Positions 60,407-63,480 of a DNA stretch of 64,000 nucleotides are shown here, piece after piece. The stretch is from contig CBDBKE010000002.1 of assembly GCA_965206645.1 (NCBI GenBank), positions 544,001-608,000 of the forward strand, read 5' to 3'. The translations under genes and the position numbers were made by a program. This stretch comes from Terriglobia bacterium (GTDB lineage Bacteria; Acidobacteriota; Terriglobia; JAJPHL01; JAPKYU01). The notes under the pieces were generated by a model that saw nothing but the letters and a program-made list of their open reading frames with translations, was not told where the DNA came from and did not search any database. Every line of letters starts with the position of its first letter. Positions within the stretch are counted from its first letter, which is position 1.

Positions 60407-60529
60407 GAAGAGTGAGACTTCCCGGCTTCCTCCGAGGCTGGCGACGCCTGGCGGCGCGGGGATATTGACCGGACCTTCCGAGAAGGCCTATAGTTGTCTG
60501 GAGCACGCTTCCCGCGGCGTGTAACGGTC

Positions 60530-61141
60530 ATGATGATCCTGTACGAAGCCTCGATGCGCTGCCGCTACTGCGGCTCCCGTGTGGTGCACAAGCTTCTCTC
60601 GGACGAGGTGCTGGCCCTCAGGCAGAATCAGCTACCCAAGCGCAACTGCAACTATTGCGTGGGTTTGACCGAGTGGGAATTGTTGGATTGGAAGGGAACT
60701 CCCCCTCCGTCCGAAGCGGAGCCCGAGGTCGGGGTAACTCAGCCCGCTGTCCCGCGCCCTCACGACCGCATCCTGATCATTGATGACGATGATCTGACGC
60801 ACATCCTCCTGCGCAAGGTACTCGAAGCAGAGGACTGCACGCTGGAGGTCGCCAGCGACGGGAAGGAGGGCCTGCAAAAACTGGTTGAGGAACATTACTC
60901 TCTAGTGATTTGCGACATCCACATGCCCGGCCTGGACGGCAAGCAGGTATTCCGCTTCATTGACGAGCAGGCGCTGGGTAGCAAGCGCCAGATTATTTTT
61001 ATCACTGGAGACACCGGCGCCGAGACCCGCGAGTTCCTAAAGAGTACAGGTTGCCCCTACCTGTACAAACCTATCCAGGTTTTACAATTCTCTTCGATGG
61101 TCCAGGAAATACTGGATGCCAATCGCGCCCCTCTGGACTAA
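60530..61141 (+). CDS. Response regulator receiver protein with N-terminal CxxC..CxxC domain
   Basis: ILIIDDD, CDIHMPGLDG, FITG, YKP; upstream TTGACC-18-TATAGT. Confidence 0.82.
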   Translation: MMILYEASMRCRYCGSRVVHKLLSDEVLALRQNQLPKRNCNYCVGLTEWELLDWKGTPPPSEAEPEVGVTQPAVPRPHDRILIIDDDDLTHILLRKVLEAEDCTLEVASDGKEGLQKLVEEHYSLVICDIHMPGLDGKQVFRFIDEQALGSKRQIIFITGDTGAETREFLKSTGCPYLYKPIQVLQFSSMVQEILDANRAPLD

Positions 61142-61238
61142 TCCACCGCAGAGCCATTCCGGAGGAGGCCTTCCGTTGGCGCACAATGCCCGGTGCCACC
61201 CGGGCACCTAGCGCCGGAACCTCAGAGCCGACCATCGT

Positions 61239-61850
61239 CTATTTTTGCAGCGCCTGGCGGATCGCCTCGTTCGATGGGCGTACCCTGAAATTCACTTCGG
61301 TGAAGCGCCATTCCACTTTGCCCTGTTTATCCAGCACGTAGGTGGTGGGATGGGGAATGAAGCGGCCCTTGGCGGCGGCTTCATTGCGCAAGCCGTAGCG
61401 GTCAATCACCCGGTGGTCGGCGTCCGACAGCAACCGGTAAGTCACCGCGCCGGGTGACTTGGCCCGTATACGCTCAACCATCGTCCGCAGCTTGTCCGGC
61501 GGATCGGAACTCACCGCCAGGAGTTCCACTTCCTGGCGCCCACTTTCACTCAACAGATCGCGCAGCTCTCCAAGCTGCTTCATGCAGTAGCCTCACCAGT
61601 AGCCGCGGTAAAACACAAGCACAACCTTTTTCTTCCCCCGAAAGCTGGAAAGCGTCACCAGTTTGCCGTCCTGGTCTTGGAGGGTGAAATCCGGAGCCAG
61701 GCTACCCTCCCGGACCCGGTCCAGGTCGGCCGGCGGAAGGTCACGTTCCCCGACGGCAGCGCCGAGGGCAAGGGGAGCTGCCATGGCAAGAGCAACACAA
61801 TTCAGCAGGAACGTCACAAGAAAACTGGGCAAGCTGAACTTTGAGCGCAT
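61239..61850 (-). CDS. AhpC/TSA (peroxiredoxin-like, thioredoxin-fold) selenoprotein, 203 aa, with in-frame UGA at 61593-61595
   Basis: APDFTL..VLVFYRGYW-[TGA]-GYC-MKQL; both ORFs share one frame; hairpin downstream of the TGA. Confidence 0.88.
61562..61578 (-). promoter_or_regulatory. Putative bacterial SECIS hairpin
   Basis: GCAGCU-UGGAG-AGCUGC after a 14-nt spacer 3' of the UGA; G in the apical loop. Confidence 0.65.
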
Positions 61851-61877: not shown

Positions 61878-63143
61878 TTACAGGAACAAGAATTCAGAGT
61901 CCGTGGAAGGTGCCCGGTGAAGCACAGCCGTCTGTTGCGGCCCGCCGAGCCGGTAGCGCGTGCCCCGCCAGGCGATGGTGCGGGTGAACCCCGCGCGGGT
62001 GAAGTTGTAAAACATCAGCAGCGGTATCAGCGGCGCTAGCAAAATGAAAGCCCAGCGCATGCGCCGGATTTCGTCAAGGTGATCCGGCATTGCGACACTG
62101 GCCCCGGCGGCCCGGGCGGCGCCGGTGGCCATACCCACTAGCCCGATCGCCGCCAGCAGCGCGAGGGCTGGCAGTGAGGACGCTGCCCAAAGCAGCGAAG
62201 CCACTCCAGCGCAATAGAGGCCGTTGGATGCCAGGCCCAGTTGCCACAGCCTGGGAGCGTAAACCCGCGTGATGATGATCTGCCGCGTCGTCCAGGAGAA
62301 CAGCTCGCCCCACTCGCATTCGCCGTGTGTGGGGACAAGGTGGATGGGTACAAACCGGATGGACAGGCCGGCCTCCCGGAGCGCGGTGGTGAGGCGATAG
62401 TCGTCGCTTACCGAGCCGCGCCAGTAACGGTCCACGTTCAGGTGAGTGAAGGTTTCGCGGCGCACCGCTGTCCCGCCGCCCCAACAAAAGTTCCGGCTGT
62501 GATCGCCCAACACCGAAGCGATAAAGGAATTCCACACGGCTCGGAAAATCGAAGGCAGACTCCGGCCGAGGGCACTGCGGGGAGGCAGGTACCAGCGGTA
62601 ACTGGTGGTCGCGCCCACTTCCTGTTCGGGTCGCGCCAAGGGCCGCACCAGTTCGCGGAGCCACCTGGGGTTAGGCCGCCCGTCCGAATCGGCAAACACC
62701 AGCACCCGGCTGGACGGGCGCACCTGCCGCACCGCCGCGCGCAGCCTCGTTACCTTTTCCCCCTCGTCCGACTGAGGTGCGGCGTAGATGAGCCGGGCGC
62801 CATGGATGGCGCTGGCAGTCGCCGATGCCCGATCCTCCGGTCCCGAGGTGGTAAAGATTAGCTCGTAGTCGGGATAATCCTGCTGGCGGTAGGCGGCCAG
62901 GTTCTCCTCCAGTCCTGGCTCGTATCCGCGGCAGGGCACAATCAGGCTGAGCGGCGGGGTGTCATCTTGAGCAGGGAGCCGGGAATGCGGAGTCTCGCTT
63001 GGGGCAGCATCTGCATGACCTGTTTCACGCAAAGGGGAGCTTGCATCCTGTCTGTCGCGATGGATGAAGGATAGCCAGCGCCGCGCACTCAGCAGCGAAC
63101 GCACACTTTGCAATAGCGCCAGCAGCCCCACCGCCCAGAGCAT
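61878..63143 (-). CDS. GT2/GT21 glycosyltransferase (ceramide glucosyltransferase/HpnI-like)
   Basis: LIVPCRG, QDYPDYE, FADSD, SDD, RQ motif; TM helices at both ends. Confidence 0.85.
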   Translation of the reverse strand: MLWAVGLLALLQSVRSLLSARRWLSFIHRDRQDASSPLRETGHADAAPSETPHSRLPAQDDTPPLSLIVPCRGYEPGLEENLAAYRQQDYPDYELIFTTSGPEDRASATASAIHGARLIYAAPQSDEGEKVTRLRAAVRQVRPSSRVLVFADSDGRPNPRWLRELVRPLARPEQEVGATTSYRWYLPPRSALGRSLPSIFRAVWNSFIASVLGDHSRNFCWGGGTAVRRETFTHLNVDRYWRGSVSDDYRLTTALREAGLSIRFVPIHLVPTHGECEWGELFSWTTRQIIITRVYAPRLWQLGLASNGLYCAGVASLLWAASSLPALALLAAIGLVGMATGAARAAGASVAMPDHLDEIRRMRWAFILLAPLIPLLMFYNFTRAGFTRTIAWRGTRYRLGGPQQTAVLHRAPSTDSEFLFL

Positions 63144-63317: not shown

Positions 63318-63480
63318 CCAGCTTGTATCCTCCCGATTCCACTGGCCCGATTCCACTGGCCCGATTCCACTGGCCCGATTCCACTGGCCCGATTCCACTG
63401 GCCCGATTCCACTGGCCCGATTCCACTGGCCCGATTCCACTGGATTCCACTGGCCAGCTTGTATCCTCCCGATTCCACTG
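63318..63480. repeat. 14-bp VNTR: A-B8-partial B-A-B (A=CCAGCTTGTATCCT, B=CCCGATTCCACTGG)
   Basis: Eight perfect B units at 63332-63443. Confidence 0.95.

Follow-up and report, generated by a model that had tools for sequence, protein, structure and literature searches.

The closest described relatives of the gene discussed here belong to a family of selenoproteins known as the "Prx-like thiol:disulfide oxidoreductases," in which a PF00578 domain carries selenocysteine (Sec, U) in a UxxC or UxxU motif; two reviews describe the family, and both grade it as predicted, one of them "with high confidence" (PMC13188914, PMC9312934). The gene itself lies on the minus strand, at 61239-61850, of a stretch of 64,000 nucleotides from a Terriglobia bacterium (positions 544,001 to 608,000 of contig CBDBKE010000002.1, the whole of which is called the window below). 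Here, an in-frame UGA, which the standard reading takes for a stop, very probably directs the insertion of Sec into the product of one intact gene, a 203-residue selenoprotein that would act as an exported redox enzyme. As to the origin of the family, both reviews credit it to their reference 12, which is reportedly a 2004 survey of prokaryotic selenoproteomes.

The family has been met in other settings. An ocean-metagenome survey, which called it "Prx-like 1" (pfam00578, UxxC), reported 225 Sec and 2,740 Cys sequences (PMC2398784). A 2006 comparative study placed it in Geobacter, Syntrophus and Desulfotalea, and in its account of the Acidobacteria counted only three selenoprotein families and four selenoproteins (PMC1794560). 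The present gene shares with the family the PF00578 domain and a Sec-first UxxC motif (U86-G-Y-C89). Because both defining features are found, it fits as a member of a selenoprotein family known for some 20 years, an assignment that is made by those features. The first-pass annotation of this DNA, made from the letters alone, had spoken of a "hidden" selenoprotein; as a description of the family, which is published, that word has to be dropped. What differs is the host, a Terriglobia (Acidobacteriota) genome, and the balance between the two forms. Cys forms dominate ocean Prx-like 1, whereas in a sample of Acidobacteriota the Sec form accounts for 121 and the Cys form for 29 of the matches listed. 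A limited literature search on the subfamily, or on acidobacterial selenoproteomes, turned up no dedicated paper.

Other described systems offer further points of comparison. AhpE (Rv2238c), the 1-Cys peroxiredoxin of Mycobacterium tuberculosis, is the best match in both sequence and fold, and its peroxidatic Cys matches C89. AhpE is, however, cytoplasmic, makes no use of selenium, has no second redox residue at such a spacing, and has a catalytic Pro, Thr and Arg unlike the residues of the protein studied here. ResA and TlpA share with it a thioredoxin fold, a W-C-x-x-C motif (here with Sec) at a helix N-terminus and an N-terminal segment for export or anchoring, and the mechanism proposed below is of the same type. 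They differ in that Sec here stands for the first Cys, on a scaffold nearer to the peroxiredoxins; in NCBIfam, the ResA model gives 54.5 where 170 is required, and the TlpA model 31.6 where 230 is. NCBIfam also contains Sec-aware models of thioredoxin-fold proteins with Sec in or beside a CxxC-like motif, one of which (TUGYCR) shares the U-G-Y-C core. Their scores against cut-offs are 48/120 (SelL-related), 35.7/300 (WAxxUGC), 35.4/270 (PrxU) and 16.8/100 (TUGYCR). A family name from NCBIfam was considered and rejected, as 14 families matched and all of them fell below their cut-offs.

The gene and its parts are as follows.

61239 to 61850, minus strand: predicted coding sequence of the Sec-containing Prx-like oxidoreductase; ATG at 61850-61848, 203 codons, TAG at 61241-61239
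61593 to 61595, minus strand: in-frame UGA, codon 86, read as Sec from the conservation of the aligned codon in relatives
61584 to 61595, minus strand: redox motif U86-G-Y-C89, after the invariant Y81-R82-G83 and W85, from the frame and alignment A1
61562 to 61578, minus strand: SECIS-like hairpin (SECIS, selenocysteine insertion sequence), overlapping the K-Q-L-G-E-L codons and starting 14 nt after the TGA
61761 to 61850, minus strand: probable signal peptide, residues 1 to about 30, with MRSK, a hydrophobic stretch and ALA-M or ALG-A; read by eye

The frame that runs from 61850 to 61239 has a single interruption in its 203 codons, the TGA at 61595-61593. Translation table 11 splits it into an open reading frame (ORF) of 85 amino acids (61593-61850) and another of 114 (61239-61583), separated by TGA-GGC-TAC-TGC alone; read through, the junction becomes FYRGYW-U-GY-C-MKQLGEL. 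That the two ORFs share one frame had been claimed at first pass, and direct reading of the frame confirms it. The Pfam AhpC-TSA domain (PF00578) then gives a single match that runs across the TGA, over residues 49-181 (E 6.2e-33; 113.8 bits, where the cut-off is 26). The Redoxin model of Pfam matches as well (E 5e-24).

The interrupting codon is kept across relatives. Matches at E<=1e-20 occur in 14 of 61 related genomes; there are 16 of them, each with exactly one TGA. In an even sample of the phylum, 132 of 401 genomes have a match at E<=1e-15, and one TGA is present in 121 and none in 29 of the matches listed (150 of 158 rows). If the three of these 150 rows that belong to unpublished genomes (G083, G106, G205) are set aside, 129 of 398 genomes match and 118 of 147 rows have one TGA. 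Where loci were fetched and their codons aligned, the codon at the site is TGA in 39 of 45 and TGC or TGT in the other six, and all 45 share the surrounding pattern [FY]-R-[GA]-x-W-[U/C]-x-x-C. The TGA therefore stands where the first-pass annotation had put it, at the first Cys of a WCxxC motif, with related loci showing a Cys codon at the very same place.

A scan of named genomes gives the same picture, with TGA at the site in 26 of 26 orthologues. Their hosts are Terriglobia, Blastocatellia, Bryobacteraceae and other Acidobacteriota, together with two metagenome-assembled genomes (MAGs) of Gemmatimonadota, one of Burkholderiales and two labelled Heliomicrobium; the closest named record is a Terriglobia MAG at 96% identity. 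The scan yielded 80 loci, of which 54 are more distant AhpC/TSA proteins and were excluded from the counts: 51 have no such motif (mostly P-x-x-x-T-x-x-C peroxiredoxins, with three FTGGU Sec-peroxiredoxins), and 3 have Ser at the site. The TGA is retained at identities down to about 35%, with strong conservation of the protein on both flanks. A comparison of homologues at this codon, which had been suggested as a check, thus finds TGA kept in close and distant relatives, with Cys in the minority among the fetched loci. The full-length database homologues that could be aligned (n=28) have Cys at the site in 24 cases and Trp in four.

The second signal is the hairpin. Its sequence is GCAGCU/UGGAG/AGCUGC, to which RNAfold adds a U-G pair, giving a 7-bp stem and a GGA triloop (61571-61569); counted from the U of UGA, columns 18-24 pair with columns 28-34. 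The hairpin and 14-nt spacer that had been claimed are accordingly recovered by RNAfold at 61578-61562. To compare relatives, a hairpin was scored when its stem ran unbroken for 5 bp or more, when its loop, 3-8 nt long, had a G within the first two positions and started 16-25 nt downstream of the UGA, and when its energy was <=-4 kcal/mol. The criteria follow the consensus for bacterial SECIS elements, with spacing and loop as in bSECISearch. Of 63 distinct Sec-form sequences, 62 pass, against 447 of 6930 windows (6.5%) placed at other codons of the same genes; two of six Cys forms pass. The loops of the Sec forms are GGA in 18, GGC in 12, GGU in 8 and AGUUG or AGUUA in 9, plus others.

Different branches place the hairpin in three registers, with the loop starting at about 16-17, 20-21 or 23-25, and the stem sequences vary among them (CAGCU/AGCUG, UCGGC/GCCGA and CUGCGCG/CGCGCAG, for example). 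Because the stems differ in this way from branch to branch, selection would appear to act on a structure and not on one sequence. Pairing within a single register was followed in alignment A2, which holds the 46 of 63 Sec forms that have the register of the window; it omits 16 in other registers (11 at about 16-17, five at about 23-25) and one that is identical over the 48 nt used. In A2, pairing holds in 93.2% of the stem cells; shifting the 3' partner by 1-3 columns lowers this to 21.8-47.1%. Of the seven pairs, three vary at both positions, namely 18-34 (UA in 19, GC in 15), 24-28 (UA in 15, CG in 14, UG in 3, GC in 2) and 21-31 (GC in 42, AU in 2). Both column 24, a synonymous third base in a Leu codon, and column 18, likewise a third codon base, track their pairing partners. 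The conserved hairpin that had been looked for is therefore present, well above background and with covariation. Among the Cys-form genes, three of six (L047, L056 and L071) retain a weakened hairpin of the UCGGC/GCCGA type seen in neighbouring Sec forms, which is consistent with a recent replacement of Sec by Cys.

The host assembly (4.4 Mb in 4 contigs, 97.9% complete) has the Sec machinery, as the first-pass annotation had predicted. Matches above curated cut-offs are found for selA (553 bits), selD (354 bits) and selB, the last scoring 309.5 bits over its N-terminal part, or 342.8 bits when a C-terminal stretch in the same frame of 649 codons is included. One tRNA-Sec lies above threshold (78.5 bits, anticodon TCA, that is, UCA; C3:716855-716945), and the five next-ranked matches to the tRNA-Sec model are ordinary tRNA-Ser and tRNA-Leu. 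The selD gene (L001, G000:C2:761488-762411) contains one in-frame TGA of its own, and selenophosphate synthetase SelD is on that account probably a selenoprotein itself.

Further selenoprotein genes had also been expected in this genome, and candidates are there: besides selD, four more AhpC/TSA-fold genes contain a TGA, so that five of the 16 PF00578 matches, the gene studied here included, carry one in frame. The four are these.

G000:C3:720277-720651 (L023): one TGA; FTGGU-TKE, with Sec at the peroxidatic position, of the true Sec-peroxiredoxin type; about 3.4 kb from the tRNA-Sec gene
C4:1407841-1408152 (L028): one TGA; FYRGHW-U-PFC, a leaderless paralogue of the gene studied here
C4:1111206-1111511 (L152): one TGA; HRHLA-U-LPC, AhpC/TSA fold
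C3:177338-177646 (L153): one TGA; LRHFG-U-QFF, AhpC/TSA fold

The Rdx/SelW family has no match in the genome, and the CMD/AhpD family has 4 matches, with a TGA in none.

Several observations weigh against reading the locus as an exported selenoprotein. The hairpin of the window's own gene is no more stable than dinucleotide shuffles of it (z of 0.05 over 41 nt, -0.05 over 60 nt and -1.87 over 25 nt), and in the minimum-energy fold of 60 nt an alternative pairing competes with it. The stem overlaps codons for a conserved Q-L-x-x-L peptide that is present in the Cys forms too, and part of the conservation of the hairpin is therefore conservation of the protein. The genomes of relatives are not independent samples. 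Ahead of the gene, a GGAGG stands 14 nt before the ATG, a long spacing for a ribosome-binding site. The view that the protein is exported rests on an N-terminus judged by eye, and the neighbouring genes, described below, give no clue to function. Since the thermodynamics of the single hairpin are not significant, it is the comparative data that must carry the weight. The whole configuration lies beyond chance because one Pfam domain spans the TGA, and because relatives conserve the TGA as well as the hairpin. With all of the computational marks of a bacterial selenoprotein gene present, this is almost certainly a real one.

What might such a protein do? An AlphaFold model was built on a 29-sequence alignment (A1). 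It has a mean predicted local distance difference test score (pLDDT) of 87.6 (over 90 in the core, with roughly the first 40 residues poorly defined) and a predicted template modelling (TM) score (pTM) of 0.80. The model places Sec where helix 87-96 begins, just past strand 75-80. In thioredoxin folds, this is the place at the helix N-terminus where the attacking Cys of the CxxC motif sits. Searches of solved structures with Foldseek (TM scores target-normalised throughout) return AhpE of M. tuberculosis as the best match, at TM 0.87, a root-mean-square deviation of 2.0 and 31% identity. The top matches are AhpE, PrxQ and BCP (TM 0.76-0.88), and ResA/TlpA structures match at 0.78-0.83. When the PDB is searched by sequence, the ranking is unchanged: AhpE has E 1.2e-16, and ResA/TlpA have 6e-10 to 1e-6.

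The active site tells a different story from the fold. When the protein is aligned to AhpE, the catalytic Pro falls opposite R82, the Thr opposite U86, the peroxidatic Cys opposite C89, and Arg116 (a position identified through an R116A mutant entry) opposite P168. The canonical peroxiredoxin pattern, P-x-x-x-T-x-x-C plus Arg, is absent; three of its four catalytic residues are replaced, and the Cys alone is kept. Because of these replacements, the protein is read as an exported selenol/thiol oxidoreductase and not as a classical peroxiredoxin. The term "peroxiredoxin-like," used of it at first pass, is sound for the fold, where AhpE is the best match, but does not stand for a demonstrated peroxidase chemistry, since those three residues are missing. 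Alignment A1 shows no variation at Y81, R82, G83, W85 and C89, and conservation of 90% or more at P166 and P168. P168 may be the counterpart of the cis-Pro of ResA.

The N-terminus begins with MRSK, continues with about 25 hydrophobic residues, and then presents ALA/ALG motifs. A hydrophobic N-terminus precedes the conserved domain in all 28 of the aligned database homologues; in place of such a leader, several membrane segments are predicted for some of the distant relatives. The model has a helix at 9-22 within the leader, at low pLDDT. To the eye, then, the N-terminus is as signal-peptide-like as had been said, and export to the periplasm by way of an N-terminal signal peptide is most likely.

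These pieces suggest a pathway. When a ribosome reaches UGA-86, the hairpin would present its GGA (or UGGAG) loop, built from codons of the conserved QLGEL segment, and SelB carrying Sec-tRNA(Sec) would bind it, allowing Sec to be inserted. The finished protein would be exported, probably to the periplasm. There, Sec86 would be the exposed nucleophile. Its target would be a disulfide, a sulfenic acid or a peroxide; Cys89 would resolve the adduct, leaving a selenylsulfide within the protein. Electrons to recycle the enzyme would then come from a CcdA/DsbD-type membrane shuttle. The genome has one match to the DsbD_TM/CcdA family (G000:C3:398036-399315), with a Cys-type redoxin homologue (L025) immediately downstream of it; together, the two are a candidate periplasmic reducing pathway.

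Provided that the product is a selenoprotein, we lean, if only somewhat, toward a role as a disulfide or sulfenate reductase, because the motif is of the thioredoxin type and the peroxiredoxin residues are missing. The main competitor to this role is a selenium-based peroxidase, in which Sec86 would be oxidised by H2O2 or an organic hydroperoxide to a selenenic acid and Cys89 would resolve it; the protein would then be a counterpart of glutathione peroxidase, periplasmic and built on the scaffold of a peroxiredoxin. The sequences and folds nearest to it are indeed those of peroxiredoxins, AhpE first and PrxQ/BCP after it. The scaffold is nearer to AhpE/BCP than to ResA/TlpA, a point that counts against the reductase. 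C89 aligns with the peroxidatic Cys, and the names given automatically in databases are "peroxiredoxin." Yet the residues that activate peroxiredoxins have been exchanged for R82, U86 and P168, W-U-x-x-C at the N-terminus of a helix is a thioredoxin-type arrangement, and the peroxiredoxin models of NCBIfam score far below their cut-offs (BCP 72 against 140, PrxU 35.4 against 270). A peroxidase is, in our judgement, rather unlikely, although the peroxiredoxin scaffold keeps it alive as an explanation.

The remaining alternatives deny that the UGA encodes Sec at all. The TGA might be a true stop, in which case the region would be a pseudogene with a nonsense mutation, or two separate small genes. 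Gene callers do annotate just the downstream 114-aa ORF, and TGA serves as an ordinary stop elsewhere in the window, where it ends 10 of the 30 long ORFs with high GC content at third codon positions (ORFs defined mechanically and unverified as genes). TGA is therefore not generally reassigned in this DNA. A true stop is nevertheless difficult to reconcile with a TGA that persists at the same codon in 39 of 45 and 26 of 26 loci between conserved flanks at the identities given above, with a single Pfam domain that crosses it, and with a complete Sec machinery in the genome; according to the model, moreover, neither half could attain the fold alone. We regard a true stop as very improbable.

Equally hard to credit is a decoding of UGA-86 as Cys or Trp, by a tRNA-Sec-like suppressor (a selC*-type tRNA-Cys) or by a partial change of code: opal suppressors of the tRNA-Sec-like tRNA-Cys kind are known in bacteria, and "allo-tRNAs" in Acidobacteria (PMC5389517), and Trp appears at the site in the four database homologues mentioned, but the genome has one tRNA-Sec above threshold, with anticodon UCA and tRNA-Ser and tRNA-Leu as its next five matches, has selA and selD present and intact, and belongs to a phylum other than those (Firmicutes, Thermodesulfobacteria, Nitrospirae, Proteobacteria) named in the report of selC* (PMC5389517), while the Trp forms lie on metagenome contigs of about 1 kb and seem most simply to be translations under a table in which TGA is Trp.

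The gene being almost certainly one for a selenoprotein, its treatment in public databases is instructive. The first-pass annotation had foreseen that pipelines would miscall it, and public calls are in fact truncated. Public protein sets store the gene only as a 114-residue fragment that starts at Met90. Among the best 120 homologues listed, 31 are likewise C-terminal fragments, of 111-127 residues and without the active site, and five of seven fragments inspected start four residues after Sec. The truncation occurs because no curated model covers the subfamily. The four Trp-bearing homologues (P0006, P0007, P0009 and P0011) read YWWLYC, YWWPYC, HWWIHC and HWWPYC; if they are what they probably are, a TGA translated under a TGA=Trp table, they represent a second type of mis-annotation in the family.

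The surroundings of the gene include the following features.

61878 to 63143, minus strand: family-2 glycosyltransferase gene, upstream, ending 27 nt before the start codon of the selenoprotein gene
60494 to 61141, plus strand: response-regulator receiver protein, converging on the selenoprotein gene; its N-terminal extension has two CxxC pairs (CRYC ... CNYC)
about 61190 to 61210: GC-rich inverted repeat between the response-regulator and selenoprotein genes
63332 to 63443: perfect tandem repeat, 8.0 copies of the 14-nt unit CCCGATTCCACTGG, 100% matches

The glycosyltransferase and selenoprotein genes may be co-transcribed. Between 61000 and 63400, a scan for promoters found no promoter-like sites, and one for terminators found four terminator-like sites against 2.0 expected, none of them adjoining the selenoprotein gene. 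Neighbours of the glycosyltransferase, response-regulator and GFO/IDH/MocA kinds recur in only 3 of 69 loci checked (L029, L030 and L072), all from the same genus. As its conservation stays within that genus, the neighbourhood was rejected as a clue to function. The tandem repeat lies between the glycosyltransferase gene and the gene that comes next, and yields repetitive 'GIGPVESGQWNRAS' pseudo-ORFs.

To a specialist, neither the recoding mechanism nor the protein family will come as a surprise; both are textbook. The value of the gene lies elsewhere. It adds to the evidence that selenium use in the Acidobacteriota is wider than early surveys reported, and hints, modestly, that this holds for the redox systems of their cell envelope. 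For annotation, a Sec-aware model for the Y-R-G-x-W-U-x-x-C proteins would repair many annotations. We propose, tentatively and at somewhat less than even confidence, that these proteins form a distinct subfamily without a curated model, which in the Acidobacteriota is mostly selenium-dependent (Sec to Cys about 4:1 among the matches listed), occurs in about one third of the genomes sampled, often in several copies, and is exported to the cell envelope. If this is true, the SECIS would be an RNA signal set within a conserved helix-coding peptide, QLxxL, whose synonymous Leu codons are chosen to keep the stem. If true, it would also mean that common soil bacteria once counted as poor in selenoproteins rely on selenium for the redox defence of their periplasm.

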